From Octopus sinensis (taxonomy: Eukaryota): DNA of 64,000 nt. The notes under the pieces are model-generated. The model was not told where the DNA came from. It saw only the letters and a list, made by a program, of their open reading frames with translations, and ran no database searches. The first letter of the stretch is position 1, and each line of letters opens with the position of its first letter. Positions 5,258 to 60,593 of this stretch are shown here, piece after piece. Made by a program: the position numbers and the translations under genes. Location of the stretch: positions 74,152,001 through 74,216,000 of the forward strand of contig NC_043006.1 in NCBI RefSeq assembly GCF_006345805.1. The letters run 5' to 3'.

Positions 5258-7230
5258 AGTAGGTGACGTACCCGGTAATTCCTGAGAAAGCGGGGTTTCG
5301 ATATTCCAATATCAAGAATTCAAAGTATGTAGCCTTTAAAACGGTTTTTGTACATTTCCAGAAAATACCGAACTGCCTTACGCAGGATCTTGCTTTTAGG
5401 AATTCCCAATAAGTTTTGAATACCCAAATTGTGAAGTCTGTTATATATCTTTATCTAGTTTCAGCTCACGAGCTGTGGCCATGCTGGGGCACCGCCATTT
5501 GGTGTTGCTACTTGATTTTACTTCACGAATGCTTCTTAGCAATTGCCATTTGGTGCATGAGAGAGTTCGATGCAGCTGCCCTCATCTGCACCTCCTGTCG
5601 TGAAGTTGGTTAATCTGGGACACCTGACAAGAAGAGATCCAGTTTTATTTTAAAGACATCTGCATCCACCCCATGCAGGTCTCTCAGATTCTTCGGGAGG
5701 ATATTGAAGAGCTGTGGGCCTCTGAAGCCCAGGCTATCACAGTATCTTGTCCTACATCTTGATGGCAAATTTGGAGTCCTTGGCACTATGCAGTGGCGCC
5801 CAGTTCTGGCATTTGTGTAACTCTCGATGCCAAAGTATGGGACAAGTCCTTCTAGGATCTTCCAGATGTAAATTATGGCATATCTTTCTCGCCTATGCTC
5901 TAAGGAATAGACTCTTAATCTCTTGAGTCTTTCCCAGTAGCTCATATGCTGCACAGAAGCTATCTTCTTCGTGTAGCTTCGTTGGATCGCCTCAAGTTCT
6001 GTGATTAACTTGACACTGGATGGTGACCATAGCTGAGAGCAATAGTCAAAAGTGGCTTAGGACAAGTGTCCTCCAGAGGACCATCATGGTTTCCTGGTCT
6101 TTTGTTCTAAAGGTTCTAAGAATCCATCCGGTCAGCCGCCTACATTTCATTGCCAATTTAGCAACATGCACATGAAAGGTTGCATCATCACTCATGTAAA
6201 TACCCAGGTCTCGCACTGATTGTGCCTCTGGGATTGCAATCCCTCCAGGTCCAGTGTATTCATTGGGTATTGCATTTAGTTTTGCATGCTGATAGCATAA
6301 ACCTTGAAACTTTTCAGCATTGAACTGCATGCTATTCTTTTCAGCCCACTTGTATATTTTGTCCAGCTCACATTGCAGGCATTTAGTGTCTTCAGGGTTC
6401 TGTATTGCCTGTGAAACTTTTGTATCATCTGCATAACTTGTGATCGTGGCTCTCTGCGTGGCTGAGGGCATGTCTGAGAGGGCCATTATGAAAAGTAGTG
6501 GTCCCAAAACAGTGCCTTACGGAACACCGCTCACTATTTGCGTGTTAATGGAAGTGGCCCCATTGGCTACTACCACCTGACTTCTATTCTATAACATCAA
6601 ATTAGTTACTCGATAGAAAGAACACAAATAATGTAGCCTCGAAATGGGCTTTAATGTGTTCCAAGAGTATATAGGACATAGGGGGAGATACTAATAAGGT
6701 ATGTATGCTAAAATCGTGAAGCATATTACGTAATAACAGAAAAATTAGATATGAGATAATAACAATTCAAAGTAAATAACTCTGAAAAGTGCTCTTGTGC
6801 GTTCACAGAGAATATTAGCCTCAGGGGTGCTAGTGTTAGTATATTCCTGAATAGGTCACTAACCGAAATAAGTGGATCTATTGATTAGGAACATCCTATT
6901 TACTTGTTTAAGAGTTGTACTGGATACACTGCAATAATTTAGTTATTTCCCGTGGCTATATATAAGGATCCCTTGCTAGATCGAATACATTATTTCCCTT
7001 GGTTTTTAAAATAAAATATATTAGATATATACAAGTATCCATTCCAGGGGCCCTATTATCGATTTTCTTCAACAATCTGAGTATGTCGTGTGGTTTACAG
7101 CCATGAGTTCTACTCATGTGTCAAGTTTCATCAAAATCGATAAAACTATGTAGCAGGAGTTAGCTAACAATTCCACAAACACAACCACACAGACAGAATT
7201 ACCCACGTGTAGCAGATGATATATAAGGAT
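5258..7230 (-). mobile_element. Possible Helitron-like host element interrupted by the CR1-group LINE
   Basis: GTAG..GTACCCGGTAATTCCTG terminus (similar motif at ~5075) and CAAGTTTCATCAAAATCG...CACAGACAGA...GATATATAAGGAT at the far end. Boundaries uncertain. Confidence 0.35.
5452..6590 (-). mobile_element. 5'-truncated CR1-group LINE (RT C-terminal half plus 3' UTR), degenerate
   Basis: ORFs 6046-6507 and 5610-5954 encode GPLLF...YADDTK...MQFNAEKFQ...DLGI and LKRLRVYSLEHRRER, typical of CR1/L2-group RT. The 3' end GGCGGTGCCCCAGCATGGCCACAGCTCGTGAGCTGAAACTAG matches the second LINE copy. Confidence 0.92.
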
Positions 7231-9134: not shown

Positions 9135-9897
9135 AGGTGTCGAGCTGACAGAAACGTTACCACGCCGGGCGATATGCGTAGCCGTATTTCGTCTACCGCT
9201 ACCTTCTGAGTTCAAATTTTGCCTTTCATCCTTTTGGGGTCGATAAATTAAGTACCAGTTACGCACTGGGGTTGATGTAATCGACTTAATCCGTTTGTCT
9301 GTCCTTGTTTGTCCTCTCTGTGTTTAGCCCCTTGTGGGTAGTAAAGAAATAGGTATTTCGTCTACCGCTACGTTCTGAGTTCAAATTCCGCCGAGGTCGA
9401 CTTTGCCTTTCATCCTTTCGGGGTCGATAAATTAAGTACCAGTTACGCACTGGTGCTTATGTAATCGACTTAATCCGTTTGTCTGTCCTTGTTTGTCCTC
9501 TCTGTGTTTAGTCCCATGTGGGTAGTAAAGAAATAGGTATTTCGTCTACCGCTACGTTCTGAGTTCAAATACCGACGAGGTCGACTTTGCCTTGCATCTT
9601 TTCGGGGTCGATTAAATAAGTACCAGTTACGCACTGGGGTCGATATAATCGACTTAATCCGTTTGTCTGTCCTTGTTTGCTGTGTTTAGACCCTTGTGGG
9701 TAGTAAAGAAATAAGTATTTCGTCTACCGCTACGTTCTGAGTTCAAATTCCGCCGAGGTCGACTTTGCCTTTCATCCTTTCGGGGTCGATAAATTAAGTA
9801 CCAGTAACGCACTGGGATTGATGTAATCGATTTAATCCGTTTGTCTGTCCTTGTTTGTCCTCTCTGTGTTTAGCCCCTTGTGGGTAGTAAAGAAATA
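9135..9897 (+). mobile_element. SINE family A: one tRNA-like head plus 4 tandem ~170-185-bp bodies, TSD TGTATCAA
   Basis: B box GAGTTCAAATTCC; junction AAAGAAATA|(G/A)GTATTTCGTC at ~9351, 9536, 9714; TSD 9124-9131 / 9898-9905; nested in an older minus-strand copy that runs to ~10048. Confidence 0.9.
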
Positions 9898-10669
9898 TGT
9901 ATCAATTGCAATGTTCGGCTGGTAAATATATTATCAAGCCCAGTACGCCGAAACGCAAAGTCGATTTCGGCGGAATTCGAACACAAAACGAAAAGAAAAG
10001 TTGCTTAGGATTGTGATCGACACGCTAACGATTCTACCAGCTCACTGCATGGGTTTTAGCCAGCAAACTTTCCTTTAACAGCGCAAACAGCTAGGCGGCT
10101 GCGTCACAGGGACATAACAGTGTTTAACAAATAATGTCTCTATTTAATATATATATGTATAATTAAAAAAAATAATACGTGATATACAAGCACGCACCAC
10201 TACCAACTCACAGCGATCAATTTATGTGATATTAATTACAAAGGAAGACAGAAAGAAATGCTGATACTAGGATCAATTTATGTTACCATTCTTCTAATTT
10301 GTATCCTTTCAGACTCGATTACAGAAAGTAGTTTTTCTCTCATGGGATTTCGCTTTTACGATGTTGGTCGACATTGATAGCAACTCTACTATATCTGCAT
10401 CTACGCACACACCAAAACACACAGGCGCACACACACACACAAACACACTCATATATGCACACATATACATACAAGCAAGTCGTTGAAGCTGACAGTCAGC
10501 AATAGCAAAAACAATGACAGCAGAGAGATGAAAAAGAAGAAACCCAATGCAACAGGGACATCACGTTTATCGTAAAAAGAATGAGTTTCAGGGAGAAGAA
10601 AAAGAGATAGATGTACGAAGAGAAAGACAGAGACACAGAGAGCGGGTTAAACCGACAGAGGGAGGGATA

Positions 10670-28195: not shown

Positions 28196-28803
28196 ATATA
28201 CCTATTTCTTTACTACCCACAAGGGGTTAAACACAGAGAGGACAAACAAGGACAGACAAAGGGATTAAGTTGATTATATCGACTCCAGTGCGTAACTGGT
28301 ACTTATTTACTCGACTCCGAATGGATGGAAGGTAAAGTCGACCACGGGGGAATTTGAACTCAGAACGTAAAGAGAAACGAAATACCTATTTCTTTACTGC
28401 CCACAAGGGGCTAAACACACAGAGAACAAACAAGGACAGACAAAGGGATTAAGTCGATTACATCGACTCCAGTGCGTAACTGGTACTTATTTACTCGACC
28501 CCGAATGGATGGAAGGTAAAGTCGACCACGGGGGAATTTGAACTCAGAATGTAAAGAGAAACGAAATACCTATTTCTTTACTACCCACAAGGGGCTAAAC
28601 ACACAGAGAACAAACAAGGACAGACAAAGGGATTAAGTCGATTACATCGACTCCAGTGCGTACATTGTACTTATTTACTCGACACCGAAAAGATGAAACG
28701 GCAAAGTCGACCACGGTGGAATTTGAACTCAGAACGTAGCGGCAGACGAAATACCACTAAGCATTTCGCCCGGCGTGCTAACGTTTCTGCCAGCTCACCG
28801 CCT
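28196..28803 (-). mobile_element. SINE family A: head plus 3 bodies, TSD TACTCGGAAC
   Basis: TSD 28186-28195 / 28804-28813; same junction between bodies. Confidence 0.9.
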
Positions 28804-29502
28804 TACTCGGAACGAATACATTTAAGCATTCGTTGCTCTGACGATTTTAGTAATTCAGCGCTAATTATATGTCAAATGGCTGCTATCACACTTCTGAACT
28901 AAAGTCATATTCCCCTGTATCGCAGCTTCTTTAGTCTTTTTACGTTCCTATGGCAACCGAGACAATTGTTTCTTCTAGTATTGCAATTTATTGTGTTGAC
29001 GTCGTTGGTATATTTGCTGATTAGCTTCAGGTCAACTGTGTCTGAACGGATATGTGAACAAAGCCATTCCGGCCATGACTCACCATCTTTCACTAGGTTT
29101 AAATGTATAAGTGTGCAATACATACACACATATATACATTCATGCATACATACTTACATACAAACATGTATGCATACATACATACATACACACATATATA
29201 CATACTTACATGTGTATGTACGTAAATATCAATATGTATGAATGCATATATAATAGATATTCACAAACACACATATGTATATATGTATATATATATACAC
29301 ATACATATATACATACATATATATATATATATAAGTAATACTAAGCAATAAAGGGTTTAGCAACGAATTGCCTTACCACATACCGAATTTAGAATTTCTT
29401 CTACTAAAAAGGGAGATCTCAGTAAAAACAGCAATTGGAAGGCAGACACAAACAGGTAAGAGAGAATGAATTGACGGCAATCTATCATACAATTTTAAGT
29501 TA

Positions 29503-29602
29503 TCTACGGACGCACGTTTCGAAATCAGGTTTTTAGGAAAGCATAAGAATTAAATATTAAATAATTCTACCTTACCAAAACTTCTTTTCTCTTCAGCGTA
29601 GA
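29503..29602 (-). ncRNA. Type I hammerhead ribozyme, copy 1 (intact core)
   Basis: Minus strand: TCTACG-CTGAAGA-GAAA...TTTC-GAAA-CGTGC-GTC^CGTAGA. Stem I TCTACG/CGTAGA, core CUGANGA and GAAA, short stem III, GUC cleavage triplet. Confidence 0.85.
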
Positions 29603-30069
29603 ATACTATAATCATAATGATTATATATTGAATTTTGAGATACTAGAAGGCACCACTCAACTCAGTATCAGAGCGAGCTAGAATCCGCAACTAGTATCAC
29701 CAAATTCAAAGTGTGAATGAAAAGATTGTGTCACCAGCCCCTTCCCACCCGCGTGTAGCCAAAACAAGATGCTGTGGTCATCTACTGAGATAAAATATTG
29801 TTATCCGTAATAATGAAGGGTGAAATTAATTAATTTGGAATAATTATCAATTACACCAAGTAGTCTTCGGCATGTAAAAGCCTCATTCGAGGAAAATTTA
29901 AGTAATACTAAGCAATAAAGGGTTTAGCAACGAATTGCCTTACCACATACCGAATTTAGAATTTCTTCTACTAAAAAGGGAGATCTCAGTAAAAACAGCA
30001 ATTGGAAGGCAGACACAAACAGGTAAGAGAGAATGAATTGACGGCAATCTATCATACAATTTTAAGTTA

Positions 30070-30169
30070 TCTACGGACGCACGTTTCGAAATCAAGTTTT
30101 TAGGAAAGCATAAGAATTAAATATTAAATAATTCTACCTTACCAAAACTTCTTTTCTCTTCAGCGTAGA
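30070..30169 (-). ncRNA. Type I hammerhead ribozyme, copy 2 (intact core)
   Basis: Same motif as 29503-29602. Confidence 0.85.
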
Positions 30170-30659
30170 ATACTATAATCATAAATGATTATATATTGAA
30201 TTTTGAGATACTAGAAGGCACCAACTCAACTCAGTATCAGAGCGAGCTAGAATCCGCAACTAGTATCACCAAATTCAAAGTGTGAATGAAAAGATTGTGT
30301 CACCAGCCCCTTCCCACCCGCGTGTAGCCAAAACAAGATGCTGTGGTCATCTACTGAGATAAAATATTGTTATCCGTAATAATGAAGGGTGAAATTAATT
30401 AATTTGGAATAATTATCAATTACACCAAGTAGTCTTCGGCATGTAAAAGCCTCATTCGAGGAAATTTAAGTAATACTAAGCAATAAAGGTTTAGCAACGA
30501 TTGCCTTACCACATACCGAATTTAGAAATAGCAGTCAAAGAGTTATAGCTATTTCTTCTACTAAAAAGGGAGATCTCAGTAAAAACAGCAATTGGAAGGC
30601 AGACACAAACAGGTAAGAGAGAATGAATTGACGGCAATCTATCATACAATTTTAAGTTA

Positions 30660-30762
30660 TCTACAGACGACGCACGTTTCGAAATCAAGTTTTTAGGAAA
30701 GCATAAGAATTAAATATTAAATAATTCTACCTTACCAAAACTTCTTTTCTCTTCAGCGTAGA
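30660..30762 (-). ncRNA. Hammerhead ribozyme, copy 3 (GTC duplicated at the cleavage site)
   Basis: GAAACGTGCGTC-GTC-TGTAGA: core intact but stem I register altered. Confidence 0.65.
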
Positions 30763-31262
30763 ATACTATAATCATAAATGAATTATATATGATATATTGA
30801 TTTTGAGATACTAGAAGGCACCAACTCAACTCAGTATCAGAGCGAGCTAGAATCCGCAACTAGTATCACCAAATTCAAAGTGTGAATGAAAAGATTGTGT
30901 CACCAGCCCCTTCCCACCCGCGTGTAGCCAAAACAAGATGCTGGTCATCTACTGAGATAAAATATGGTTATCCGTAATAATGAAGGGTGAAATTAATTAA
31001 TTTGGAATAATTATCAATTACACCAAATAGTCTTCGGCATGTAAAAGCCTCATTCGAGGAAAATTTAAGTAATACTAAGCAATAAAGGGTTTAGCAACGA
31101 ATTGCCTTACCACATACCGAATTTAGAAATAGCAGTCAAAGAGTTATAGCTATTTCTTCTACTAAAAAGGGAGATCTCAGTAAAAACAGCAATTGGAAGG
31201 CAGACACAAACAGGTAAGAGAGAATGAATTGACGGCAATCTATCATACAATTTTAAGTTATC

Positions 31263-31358
31263 TACGGACGCACGTTTCGAAATCAAGTTTTTAGGAAAGC
31301 ATAAGAATTAAATATTAAATAATTCTACCTTACCAAAACTTCTTTTCTCTTCAGCGTA
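31263..31358 (-). ncRNA. Hammerhead ribozyme, copy 4 (stem I shortened)
   Basis: Core intact; 5' arm of stem I reduced to TACG by a local change. Confidence 0.7.
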
Positions 31359-31873
31359 TATTATATATATGATTATATATTGAATTTTGAGATACTAGAA
31401 GGCACCAACTCAACTCATTCTCTCTTACCTGTTTGTGTCTGCCTTCCAATTGCTGTTTTTACTGAGATCTCCCTTTTTAGTAGAAGAAATAGCTATAACT
31501 CTTTGACTGCTATTTCTAAATTCGGTATGTGGTAAGGCAATTCGTTGCTAAACCCTTTATTGCTTAGTATTACTTAAATTTTCCTCGAATGAGGCTTTTA
31601 CATGCCGAAGACTACTTGGTGTAATTGATAATTATTCCAAATTAATTAATTTCACCCTTCATTATTACGGATAACCATATTTTATCTCAGTAGATGACCA
31701 CAGCATCTTGTTTTGGCTACACGCGGGTGGGAAGGGGCTGGTGACACAATCTTTTCATTCACACTTTGAATTTGGTGATACTAGTTGCGGATTCTAGCTC
31801 GCTCTGATACTGAGTTGAGTTGGTGCCTTCTAGTATCTCAAAATTCAATATATATCATTTATGATTATAGTAT

Positions 31874-31970
31874 TCTACGCTGAAGAGAAAAGAAGTTTTG
31901 GTAAGGTAGAATTATTTAATATTTAATTCTTATGCTTCCTAAAAACTTGATTTCGACGTACGTCCGTAGA
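31874..31970 (+). ncRNA. Hammerhead ribozyme in the inverted unit, probably inactive
   Basis: TCTACG CTGAAGA GAAA...TTTC GA CGTAC GTC CGTAGA: the conserved GAAA is reduced to GA. Confidence 0.6.
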
Positions 31971-32166
31971 TAACTTAAAATTGTATGATAGATTGCCGTC
32001 AATTCATTCTCTCTTACCTGTTTGTGTCTGCCTTCCAATTGCTGTTTTTACTGAGATCTCCCTTTTTAGTAGAAGAAATTCTAAATTCGGTATGTGGTAA
32101 GGCAATTCGTTGCTAAACCCTTTATTGCTTAGTATTACATACATATATATATATATATATACATAC

Positions 32167-32201
<35 letters not shown>

Positions 32202-32297
32202 CATACATATATATATATAATATATATATATATATAATATATATACATACATATATATATATATATTGTATATATATATGTATATATATGTATATGT

Positions 32298-32328
<31 letters not shown>

Positions 32329-32440
32329 ATATGTATATATATATATATGTGTGTGTATATATATATGTATATATATAAGTGTATGTATATATGTGTATAC
32401 ATATATGTGTATATATTATATATGTATATATATATATATG

Positions 32441-32497
<57 letters not shown>

Positions 32498-32762
32498 GCA
32501 TATATATGTATGTATATATATGTATATATATATATGTATATATATATGTATATATATATGTGTGTATATATATGTATAGATAGTTAGATAGATAGATCGT
32601 GAACACAATAGAAGCAGCATTAAATTAAACATGCCATCTATGTATCGTACAAAGTGAAAATAGAATGTTGAAAGCCATGATGCTCTGGTTTTTCTCTGAC
32701 AGAAAATTTCTTCATAGGCATGTTATGTTGAAACTACAGTATATACCAGAACAGTACATAAG

Positions 32763-50597: not shown

Positions 50598-50697
50598 NNN
50601 NNNNNNNNNNNNNNNNNNNNNNNNNNNNNNNNNNNNNNNNNNNNNNNNNNNNNNNNNNNNNNNNNNNNNNNNNNNNNNNNNNNNNNNNNNNNNNNNN
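50598..50697. other. Assembly gap (100 N)
   Basis: Run of N. Confidence 1.
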
Positions 50698-51000: not shown

Positions 51001-51229
51001 TTTCTTTATTGCCCACAAGGGGCTAAACCTAGAGGGGACAAACAAGGACAGACAAACGGATTAAGTCGATCACATCGACTCCAATGCGTAACTGGTACTT
51101 AATTTATCGACCCCGAAAGGATGAAAGGCAAAGTCGACCTCGGCGGAATTTGAACTCAGAACCTAACGACAGACGCAATACCGCTAAGCATTTCGCCCGG
51201 TGTGCTAACGTTTCTGCCAGCTCGCCGCT
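51001..51229 (-). mobile_element. SINE family A monomer inside mariner
   Basis: Consensus match; interrupts the transposase between the WILYDNNA and HLPYSPD segments. Confidence 0.88.
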
Positions 51230-51661
51230 TTATGACAAGAGAGTCACCAGTGAGGAGAACTCGATGACAGAGTGCATTGTTGTCATAAAGAATCCAATTC
51301 TTCGGACTCCACAGATCCAGTCGCTTTCGCCGAATATCCACCCACAAACGCTTCAAAATATCACTGTAGAACTCTCGATTGACGCTCAGGCCCTGAGAAA
51401 CGAATGCCCAATACAGCGGATGTTGAAAAATACGATGGGAATGATCTTGATTGATCTGCGGCTCTGTCATGCCTTATTCGGCCATGGAGAAGAAAGACTT
51501 TTACATTATGACGACTGCTGCTTCGTCACAGGGTCGGATCTGTACACCCAATTCTTGTCATCGGTGATGATTCTCGACATGAAAGATGGGTCATCAGCGA
51601 CACGTTGACAGAGATCTTGGCACACTTCGGTGCGATGTTCTTTCTACTAAAAGATCAGCAA

Positions 51662-56524: not shown

Positions 56525-56710
56525 TAGATCACGTGATCACGTGACCGACCAGGCAATCACATGTTGCTGCACATCGCTGGTCACAATGTGCTTCGCATTG
56601 TTTTAGCCTTCAAATGACGCCACCCCGCTGGCTACGCGAGCAGGCCAACAGAAGAAAGAGTGAGAGAAAGTTGTGGCGAGAGAGTACAGCATGGATCGCC
56701 ACCACCCACT
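56525..56710 (-). mobile_element. SINE body fragment related to family C (a similar fragment lies at ~8385-8560)
   Basis: Reverse complement GGTGGTGGCGATCCATGCTGTACTCTC matches 61990-62040. Confidence 0.6.
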
Positions 56711-56910
56711 GGCAGCCCGAACACCTTATGATATTTTCTGAAGCACACGTAAAATTAGATTTGATCTTGAAATTTTGTCCCTCTTTGAAGAGGAATTTTG
56801 ATCCTTCTAGAAGGTTTGGGCATATTGCGCAGTTTGGTCTACCACATTTTTTTACTTTTGCATCCGTTATTTGAGAAAACAATTTTGCCTTTGTGAGGAT
56901 CTATTTTTTT
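56710..56910 (-). mobile_element. Penelope-like element fragment (Cys-rich linker and start of GIY-YIG endonuclease)
   Basis: KCGRPNCAICP...FKIKSNFTCASENIIRCSGC resembles the CxxxxCxxC...FTCxSxN(xIY)xIxCxxC region preceding the YIG motif in PLE ORFs. Confidence 0.75.
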
Positions 56911-57739: not shown

Positions 57740-58811
57740 TTAGGATCTACCCAGCCAGTCGTCTGCACTCTGTCGCCATCCTGGTAATGTGCATTGGAAA
57801 GAGGTATCATCACTCATGTCGATACCCAGGTCCCTCACAGACTTAGGCTCTGGGATTGAAATTCCCTGTGAACCAGTGTATCCTGTAAGTTTAATATTCA
57901 GTTTTGGATGCTGGTTGCGCAGGGTCAGGAATTTTTCAGCATTAACCTGCATATTATTATCCTCAGCCCATCTGTAGATTGAATCCAACTCCTGCTGCAG
58001 GTGTGCAACATCGCTGGGGTTCTGTATTTTCTGCGAAACTTTCGTATCGTCTGCATAGCTGGCCAGAGTGGCTATCCGGGCATTTGAGGGCGTATCTGAG
58101 AGGGCCACCATAAAAAGCAGTGGTCCCAAGACAGTGCTCTGTGGAACACCGCTCACCGTTTGTGTGTTCATAGAGGTGGCTCCATTAACCACTACTGCTT
58201 GACTCCTATCTTTCAGGAAGTCATGTAACCACACTCCAAGTTTTCCAGCTATACCGAGGTCACGCAGTTTGTGGCATATTATACCATGATCAACCTTGTC
58301 AAAAGCTTTTGCAAAATCAAGGTGGATTACGTCCACATTTGATTTGTTGAGTAACTGCCTCAACACCCCGTCATAATGTTGTAAGAGCTGGGTCAGGCAG
58401 CTCCTACCTGGTCGAAAACCATGCTGGGTATCACTCAGCAAGTTATTTTCCTCAAGGAATGCGATTAGTTTCTTTCTGACCATCCATTCTATGACTTTGC
58501 TGATGTGTGAAGTGAGAGATATAGGCCTATAGTTTTTGGCATCTGCTCTACTTTATGTATTGGGCATATTATTCCCTCCTTCAGCTTGCTTGGCAGTTTG
58601 CCATTCGCAAGAAAGCTCTGGAAGAGAATCTTGAAGGGTTTTGCCAGGGCATAGTACACGCTTTGAGGAGGATTGCTGAGAAACCATCTGGATCAGCAGC
58701 TGAGTTTGAGTCCACTTCATCTATGGCTAGTAGGACATCTTTTTCGCTAATGTCAATACATTCTATTGTAACCGCCTCGCTGGTTATATGTGAGGCGGCA
58801 AAGAAGTCCAC
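57740..58811 (-). pseudogene. LINE ORF2 reverse transcriptase domain (frameshifted)
   Basis: SAADPDGF, KNYRPISLTSHISK, QHGFR, LDFAKAFD and YADD motifs spread across frames. Confidence 0.92.
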
Positions 58812-58870
58812 TCATTTGTTCACTTGTCTGTGTTCCAACGGGGTGGTAAAGAAACTTTTGAACTGGTCAT

Positions 58871-60130
58871 TCAGCATCTCACTGATCTTAGTTGGACTGT
58901 CTGTGAAGGAGCCATCCTTTTGGAGGTGGGTCCTATCTTGTAGTGCACTGAGACTGTTTCTTTCGCGTAATGAAAGAAGGCCTTTGGGTTTGATTTAATG
59001 CTTTTTATAACCCGGGCTTCTTTGTCTGCTTTCTCCTTTACATAGGATTGTTGCAGCCTTTTTTCGATTTCCATCAGTTTTGTTTTTAGGCGGGATGTTT
59101 CGCTAGTTTTGGGATGTTGGTTGAGACGATTTGCAACCTTTGTCCGTCGTCTCATGAGGATCTTCCTGTCTCTTGGAATCTTGCTCCTATTTGTTTTGGC
59201 CTTGTGCTCTGGGACATATTTCTGGCATACGGCTTGCACAGAAGATATGAAACATTCTAGTTTCATGTCAATGTCTGGTGTGGAGAGACATTCCGGCCAG
59301 TCCTCTCTGACGATCTCTTTTTGGATCAATTTCCAATCTGCTTTGTGGAATTTCAGATTGGAGAGATTTCGGGTGCTTCCTTTAGGCTGTATGTCTCTGG
59401 TTACTTTTGGCCCAAACATAGACAGCTCTATTATGTTGTGATCCGAAACTGATGTCAGTGTCACTTTCACATCATGAATGATGTCCATATTGTTGGTGAA
59501 GCAGAGATCCAGAATGTTATTCGCCCTAGTTGGCTGGAGTACAACTTGCTCCATGAATAAGGCATTGGTGAGGTTGAGCAGGGACTCCACCTGTACTTGC
59601 TTGCAATGATTCCTTCCTGATAGTATGTGACCTTCGGGCCATTTGACGTTGGGGAAGTTGAAATCACCCATAAGAAATATGGTCACGTTGTGTTCCAGAT
59701 TCATGAGGATTTCTTTAATTCTTGTGAGGCAATCTTCAAACTTGCCTATGTGATTTGAGGCATCCGGTGGGCAATATGTATTGCATATGACTATATTATG
59801 TTGTCTTTTGTATACAATTAAAGTGTCACATACCGAATTTGAGTATGTCATTAAGACCTGGGGTGTGAGGTCATCTCGGATGTATACAGCAACTCCACCA
59901 TAGCTCCTTTCCCTTCTGTCTGTTCGCATTATGGCATAGTTTGGTATGTGTACTGCTGCGTCCTCTATATCAGGGTTGAGGTGAGTTTCCACAAGTGCTA
60001 TGCATAGGGATTGATTGCATGCAGTAAGATCTCGCAGGAAAGACATTTTGTTTCTATTTTGATGCAACAGGCCCCCAATATTTAGTAAAAGTATTGGGGT
60101 GACGGCTGTGCAGGCGTTAGGGGAGGCCAT
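58871..60130 (-). pseudogene. LINE ORF2 N-terminal AP-like endonuclease domain plus linker (frameshifted before RT)
   Basis: Probable ATG at 60130 (MASPNA...). EEP/APE catalytic motifs are visible in the translation. Confidence 0.9.
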
Positions 60131-60593
60131 CCCGTGTCTGTTGACTGTGGTGGTCTTGCATAGTTCCTTCTCTGGTGGGCAGGGTTCCTTCTCTGTGCTT
60201 GGTGTAGCCAGGTTAGCTGCCGGACAATTCTTTGCGCCATGCATAAAAAAGACTCTTGCTCAGCTGCTGCGTTGCGCAGAACGTCTGAGGAGCGCACTTC
60301 GTTTTTGAAACTTTTCCTGGGACACATTTCTTGTGTCCCCTCGGTAAAGCTTTTCTCTTTGAGTACCCTGAAGTTCTGGCGGGGTGTCGGGTGGGCGAAC
60401 CGGTAGTTTTTGCCGTCCTCACCATGCCAACATTTGCCCCGCACGTAGAATTTACAGGTTCTTCGGCGCCTTCCAGATTTCTTCTTTCCTGAAGTGTACT
60501 GGGTGGCATTGGATCCTCCATGGGGTTCTCTGCTGTTTGTGTGGTGGGTTGGGGTTTCAGCTTTGGTTGTTTTGCCTTTTCCTCCTTTTCCCT

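Follow-up and report, generated by a model that had tools for sequence, protein, structure and literature searches.

Introduction

Non-LTR retrozymes and their circular RNAs are known from coral, mussel (Mytilus) and axolotl (PMC7229834), and an origin from Penelope-like elements (PLEs) is argued for the retrozymes of vertebrates (10.64898/2026.07.22.740005). The movement of animal retrozymes is still a proposal; in both of these sources the involvement of a PLE partner and of a circular template is put forward as an argument, not demonstrated. With PLE insertions, an inverted copy truncated at the 5' end is often present, and (TA)n is a favoured target (PMC8557442). It was shown for a PLE of the anole that reverse transcription begins at two internal sites, which bound the genomic tail, and that cleavage and extension affect both strands of the target (PMC11167929). 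The minimal hammerhead of PLEs has been described with a helix II of 7-8 bp bearing a bulged first base, a helix I of 4-5 bp and little or no helix III, and most metazoan type I hammerheads are described as being of dimer design (PMC4209133). Our literature search, most subscription papers being outside its reach, found no paper on a cephalopod retrozyme.

In this work, we analysed an array of hammerhead-bearing repeats in a 64-kb stretch of DNA (the window), which has the general appearance of AT-rich animal DNA with many microsatellites. The reading that we prefer, at a probability of about 0.55, is that the array belongs to a multi-copy, protein-free repeat which was likely pasted by a borrowed Penelope-type RT-endonuclease, and likely from more than one circular RNA.

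Anatomy of the array and its target

Sequence inspection and blastn revealed that TA/TACA microsatellites bracket 3.6 direct units (567-599 bp), followed by 1.3 inverted units. The left target flank is a (TACA)n/(TA)n microsatellite (29118-29334). It is followed on the minus strand by the units F1 (29335-29901, 567 bp) and F2 (29902-30469, 568 bp), both without a 24-nt hairpin sequence, by F3 (30470-31068, 599 bp), with the hairpin and several private indels, and by the partial unit F4 (31069-31417, 349 bp), which forms the inner end of the left arm and again has the hairpin, at about 31129-31152. On the plus strand, the inner end of the right arm is the partial unit R2 (31410-31573, 164 bp), with the hairpin and without a ribozyme, and its outer part is R1 (31574-32138, 565 bp), without the hairpin; the right target flank consists of (TA)n with ATAC units (32139-32582). 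At the central inversion joint the arms overlap by 8 nt (31410-31417), of which seven match. The array units are 97-99% identical to F2 by blastn, with F1 and F2 nearly the same (99.3%). Non-coding units of about 570-600 bp in head-to-tail order and an inverted block behind them, as described in the initial annotation, are thus confirmed.

Both arms have their RNA-sense 3' ends outward, F1 toward the left and R1 toward the right microsatellite, and both start there at one site (site A); F1 and R1 would thus be the first-made units of their arms. Agreement between the two outer ends is within 3 nt, and about 3 nt at each end are common to the flank: the left flank has TAA in common with the unit-unit junction, and the final TAC of the right end is compatible with the (ATAC)n flank. 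The earlier claim that both ends stop at the same nucleotide and run into (TA)n holds for the single site and for the microsatellite flanks; identity to the base is not provable.

A (TA)n target without discernible duplication and an inverted 5'-truncated copy adjoining a tandem, an arrangement that recurs in sequencing run X8, are features by which PLE insertions are recognized, and in both respects the array resembles insertions of Neptune, Hydra and Naiad (PMC8557442). Unlike these, it contains no RT-endonuclease frame, its units are in exact register, its tail measures 94 nt and both arms end at the same site. In F2, stop codons abound in all six frames and no long reading frame is present, and the RT/GIY-YIG frame of an autonomous PLE was not found in the array units. 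With metazoan non-LTR retrozymes the array shares non-coding tandem units of less than 50% GC (34-35% here), a unit size within their range of 51-972 bp, a predicted well-paired circle and a ribozyme free to fold; its 24-nt indel resembles the polymorphism of 20-odd nt of the coral retrozyme (PMC7229834). No LTR-like layout is visible in the array sequence. Inverted arms, a tail, two fixed end sites and microsatellite targets are not mentioned for retrozymes in the main texts of PMC7229834 and 10.64898/2026.07.22.740005. A scan for bacterial promoters, ill-suited to an animal genome, and a tRNA scan gave nothing above chance.

The near-identity of F1 and F2 could also reflect later duplication. 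One could thus imagine that a single unit or a short insertion was expanded and mixed at the DNA level, by unequal exchange and gene conversion, and that the inversion arose through DNA repair, with no special RNA template; local amplification from a PLE terminus was proposed in the 2026 preprint (10.64898/2026.07.22.740005). Such a history gives no reason why both outer ends should lie at one site, against a microsatellite and in opposite orientation, nor why other copies should have the same sites together with other inversion breakpoints, and we consider it very unlikely.

Putative start sites A and B and the 94-nt tail

A second site (site B) is found at 30376 in F2, with equivalents at 29807, 30974 and 31668, and between it and site A there is a tail of 94 nt (30376-30469, minus strand). 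Each unit has exactly two copies of the motif GTAATA, one at A and the other, 94 nt away, at B; ACCCTT is likewise present exactly twice, 21 and 14 nt inside A and B. When 1106 anchored contexts were ranked for likeness to A, B tied for first place. Besides the two ends of this locus, a TA-rich end at site A is present in run X14; TA ends at site B were found at 30376 and 30385 in two X8 contigs only, one of them with an altered base inside the motif. An internal start downstream of the hammerhead is also a property of Poseidon PAc of the anole, whose two end sites bounding a tail would have their counterparts in A and B (PMC11167929). The length of the tail counts against our preferred reading, 94 nt here versus the 30-40 nt reported for PLEs, as does the restriction of the site B ends to two contigs of one run.

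Site A is located 174-198 nt downstream of the predicted cut site. Since both arms start at this site, copying would have begun inside the RNA.

The hammerhead ribozyme

The elements of a type I hammerhead follow each other in the order UCUACG, CUGAAGA, 69 nt, GAAA, ACGUGCGU, C and CGUAGA, on the minus strand in the F units and on the plus strand in R1. Stem I has 6 bp (UCUACG/CGUAGA), the stem II region comprises 69 nt, and stem III is palindromic, of the dimer type. The core required of type I (CUGANGA, GAAA and UH, with stems I-III) is intact in F1 and F2 and altered in F3, and in the whole window, on both strands, a type I descriptor matched only these three units. No match was obtained in 5000 dinucleotide shuffles of a unit, and two in 5000 when stem I was relaxed to 4 bp.

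A type I hammerhead in every unit had been claimed, and this applies without reservation to F1 (29503-29602, minus strand; predicted cut between 29509 and 29508) and F2 (30070-30169, minus strand; predicted cut between 30076 and 30075, stem III palindromic). In F3 (30660-30762, minus strand) 3 nt are duplicated at the cut site, so that stem III could form within the monomer with 3 bp and a loop of 5 nt, and the first pair of stem I is G-U. Stem I is reduced to 4 bp in F4 (31261-31358, minus strand). The remnant in R1 (31874-31970, plus strand) has lost two As of GAAA and is predicted to be inactive; it carries the perfect-palindrome allele of stem III. R2 ends short of the ribozyme. Thus, two of the five ribozyme copies are clean and three are damaged or altered, a proportion that speaks against our preferred reading. 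The criterion used in 10.64898/2026.07.22.740005 is a minimum of two consecutive tandem units, each with a complete type I hammerhead, and F1 and F2 provide these.

Stem III is predicted to be unstable as a lone hairpin (+2.4 kcal/mol) and to be stable as the 8-bp self-duplex of two copies (-8.8 kcal/mol); pairing probabilities predicted for stems I and II range from 0.4 to 0.97. When cut-to-cut monomers of 567, 590 and 601 nt were folded as circles, the z scores were -4.1, -6.3 and -5.1 on the hammerhead strand, compared with -2.4 to -2.9 on the opposite one, based on 30 shuffles in each case, with 63-66% of the bases of the monomer circle predicted to be paired; these folds are predictions, and the z scores do not distinguish a circle from a multimer.

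The hammerhead had been described as minimal, a description which the 6-bp stem I, the 69-nt stem II region and the presence of stem III contradict; for the same features we rejected an assignment to the minimal PLE hammerhead (min-HHR). A half-core of the Naiad type was rejected as well, the full core and the stems being present. Type I architecture, the G10.1-C11.1 pair, a palindromic 15.2-16.2 region and predicted action as a dimer are common to the array hammerhead and minimal PLE hammerheads. It differs from them in a stem I with an internal loop and a closing stem, in the lack of an extra base before stem II, in having stem III and in a stem II far longer than 7-8 bp (PMC4209133). A palindromic stem III is also listed for PLEs of the Hydra clade in a table of PMC8557442, and type I architecture with a short palindromic stem III is shared with metazoan non-LTR retrozymes, the dimer type being as in the axolotl (PMC7229834). 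In contrast to the 69-nt stem II region found here, metazoan non-LTR retrozymes have a 4-bp helix with a terminal loop. The search with Rfam hammerhead models that had been suggested as a check gave no hammerhead match, either at the gathering score or with E relaxed to 10, likely because of the long stem II; the eight weak non-hammerhead matches that it returned represent microsatellite or chance. Pattern scans for the motif gave no match in viral contigs, and a single match in a metagenome contig (L001), in which the rest of the motif was absent, was dropped as chance.

The comparison supports a description of the array as an element of the non-LTR retrozyme type with the insertion footprint of a Penelope element and a stem II of unusual length; expression and circles would be expected by analogy. 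The element class is already known, so that the surprise is moderate. The broader suggestion of a retrozyme or Penelope-derived system agrees with the anatomy, with the family data from four runs described below and with the literature, the ribozyme itself not being of the minimal PLE type. One practical consequence is that hammerhead searches with short limits on stem II would miss whole families.

Other copies of the family

Complete or partial units were present in 20 of the 24 sequencing runs listed, from 11 studies and six organism labels; the runs may derive from other species. No RNA run is among those listed with the unit, which carries no information on expression; X8 and X14, which may be RNA, were left out as evidence of transcription. 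Contigs of four runs (X1, X2, X8 and X14), which are uninformative on RNA ends, strand and circularity, were aligned to a single unit (29912-30467), with 76% of X1 analysed; summed depth is to be read as allele share, not as copy number. In the four runs 4471, 553, 12 and 110 contigs aligned, covering 30 of 30 bins in each. The head-to-tail joint appeared as a loose end in all four, which identifies a multi-copy tandem family. There was no well-supported exit into other sequence among the 24 loose ends listed of 128, and one exit rested on a single contig.

None of the 40 variants listed of 68 affected a conserved core base, while N7 varied. The perfect-palindrome allele of stem III is common, accounting for 56% of summed depth in X1 and 97% in X2. 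One diverged X8 contig (record 29, depth 4.6) combines a change at N7 with the replacement of a U-A pair of stem I by C-G and of two A-U pairs by G-U; both of its stem I alleles are also present at a low share in X1.

Two opposite-strand joints are listed, with breakpoints different from that of this locus and both with zero overlap, which counts against our preferred reading. The X8 opposite-strand joint has the same geometry as this locus. The central joint of this locus is not one of the two joints listed from the contigs, from which its absence cannot be deduced. This bears on the possibility that the inversion, the number of units or the markers discussed below result from faulty assembly, through a read folded back on itself or through polishing with mixed copies of an abundant repeat. 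Many of the private indels of 1-2 nt do resemble long-read errors, and poor assembly is a known problem of PLE arrays (PMC8557442). However, the arms are no mirror images, as they differ in length (3.6 versus 1.3 units), in markers and in flanks, an inversion of the same geometry occurs in an X8 contig, and all five copies of the window kept alleles of low share in X1 and X2, which polishing toward the majority would tend to erase. An assembly artefact is, in our judgement, the least probable of the explanations considered.

Unit markers and the nature of the template

Two positions of the unit, 203 (30080) and 491 (30368), served as markers together with the 24-nt indel; both are variable family-wide in the run contigs, and their differences are thus not fresh copying errors. 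The combination of 203C and 491T without the 24 nt characterizes F1 and F2; in F3 the 24 nt are present together with 203C and 491G, with which F4 agrees over its extent; in R1 they are absent, with 203T and 491G, and in R2 they are present. The indel takes away most of a 9-bp hairpin (predicted at -9.9 kcal/mol), and the 24 nt are absent from what would be the first-made unit of either arm. It is a guess that they were lost by a skip on the first pass.

The left arm crosses the cut site four times and the right arm once, so that the template was circular, uncut or changed; a cut linear monomer copied without jumps does not account for the left arm. A single monomer circle, suggested in the initial annotation as a form that could be re-inserted, would yield equal units. 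The units differ, with four marker sets in four complete or near-complete cut-to-cut monomers, and for this locus we therefore rejected a template of one such circle. If the switches took place at site-A boundaries, three marker sets are enough, whereas four are needed with boundaries at the cut site; this is a weak indication from one locus.

Two alleles common to all five copies of the window are rare in X1 and X2, 30137C amounting to about 4% and 2% of summed depth and 30144A to about 13% and 3%; their presence in all five copies suits one source locus or transcript and counts against our preferred reading, although X14 has mostly 30137C and the runs may be of other species. Together with the marker mosaic across the units, it gives weight to a version of the same Penelope-type, two-ended insertion in which copying was from a linear multi-unit transcript that had stayed uncut, or from one multimeric circle, the source being a single mixed array and the hammerhead a passenger or active later. 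It was shown that insertion of the anole PLE is independent of cutting by the hammerhead (PMC11167929), and eight of nine retrozyme dimers stayed uncut in the preprint (10.64898/2026.07.22.740005). On the other hand, linear templates give arrays no longer than their source, and a family maintained in this way would shrink; moreover, the core, unchanged in the variants listed, and the one candidate compensatory pair suggest selection on cutting. We regard the uncut multimer as a serious contender, though rather unlikely.

Proposed mechanism

Several circles appear preferable to an uncut multimer, given the conserved core and the fact that arrays cannot grow from linear templates: a conserved cutter combined with arrays of more than one unit would call for some step that restores length, a circle for example. 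Under the preferred reading, tandem arrays would be transcribed on the hammerhead strand, and neighbouring ribozymes are predicted to pair through the palindromic stem III and to cleave at GUC^C; by analogy with known retrozymes, a host ligase may close the resulting monomers, about 570-600 nt in length. A Penelope-type enzyme would then cleave the two strands of a TA microsatellite and extend both DNA ends, starting at the RNA-internal site A, on a template that would be circular, uncut or changed. At least three marker sets are present among the units, which excludes one monomer circle as the sole template, and the changes of marker set fit boundaries at site A, where the enzyme would come full circle. 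The two cDNA ends could finally be joined through the overlap of 7 of 8 nt that is observed at the centre.

Several published observations count against this reading. Insertion of the anole PLE is just as efficient when its hammerhead is inactive, and the RNA used is mainly unprocessed (PMC11167929), eight of nine Xenopus retrozyme dimers were uncut in vitro (10.64898/2026.07.22.740005), and PLE hammerheads are poor cutters (PMC4209133); also, no autonomous partner element was found.

A more elaborate version, which we consider distinctly unlikely as a whole, would have a Penelope enzyme roll round foreign RNA circles, recognize ACCCUU..AUUAC at both start sites, prime from both DNA ends, skip the 24-nt hairpin on the first pass and switch circles at the start site, the 69-nt stem II representing a form of hammerhead missed by current models. 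The array family constitutes defined test material, with two putative start sites that have a motif in common and a predicted cut site, and its marker-bearing units allow a distinction between one circle, more than one, and a linear multimer.

A Penelope-like fragment elsewhere in the window

A sequence link between the array and a named PLE was not found: four short unit motifs gave no match in the supplement of PMC8557442, where line breaks can hide matches, and the hammerhead given there for Hydra-1_Obim differs from that of the unit. A separate observation concerns a decayed PLE fragment (56700-56885, minus strand), unlinked to the array and 25 kb away from it, which retains the CxxxxCxxC linker together with the initial residues of the GIY-YIG region. 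It is identical in 50 of 62 residues to P0002, a 326-aa partial protein in which the linker precedes a C-terminal nuclease region, lacks three residues and ends before the catalytic motif. A Pfam search gave nothing at the cut-off for the fragment and, for P0002, GIY-YIG only under the cut-off (E 0.014). To judge from the layout described in PMC8557442, the fragment is a Neptune/Nematis-type piece. It had been taken as a sign that partners for the repeat exist in this genome; as a real piece of a PLE it shows the past presence of such elements there, and in its decayed state it indicates neither an active partner nor the mover of the repeat. Naiad and Hydra families that target (TA)n are listed for octopus in PMC8557442.

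In one of the direct units of the retrozyme-type array, F3 (30470-31068), the cut site carries a 3-nt duplication (30660-30700, minus strand), with which stem III becomes a 3-bp helix closed by a 5-nt loop. The predicted energy of this stem is 0.0 kcal/mol, versus +2.4 kcal/mol for the dimer-type form. Thus, by way of its 3-bp stem III, the F3 hammerhead might be able to cut as a single copy, as judged from structure prediction; the duplication may equally be an assembly error.

In contigs of the sequencing runs aligned to the unit (29912-30467), A>G and T>C together made up 16 of the 32 changed places in run X8 and 22 of 46 in run X14; in run X1 the share was 5/16. The proportions in X8 and X14 could reflect RNA editing on both strands, or simply more diverged copies. 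A single contig of X1 departs from the unit at 30234 into unrelated sequence, possibly because another element was inserted within a copy of the retrozyme family.

Two splice-like motifs were spotted by eye on the minus strand: a donor-like GUAAG in stem II (around 30142) and, downstream of the cut site, a pyrimidine-rich, acceptor-like AG (around 29973). No skip joint was present among the joints listed for the contigs of the four runs.

Tandem arrays of a 184-bp repeat occupy 28198-28738 and 9218-9902, one of them lying 600 bp to the left of the retrozyme array, and neither contains a match to the hammerhead descriptor. A scaffold gap of 100 N spans 50598-50697. The broken frames at 57740-60259 and 5610-6516 (minus strand), parts of which resemble an endonuclease and a YADD reverse transcriptase, are presumably of LINE type, and a short frame at 51156-51473 (minus strand) resembles what we take to be a decayed piece of a mariner-type transposase.
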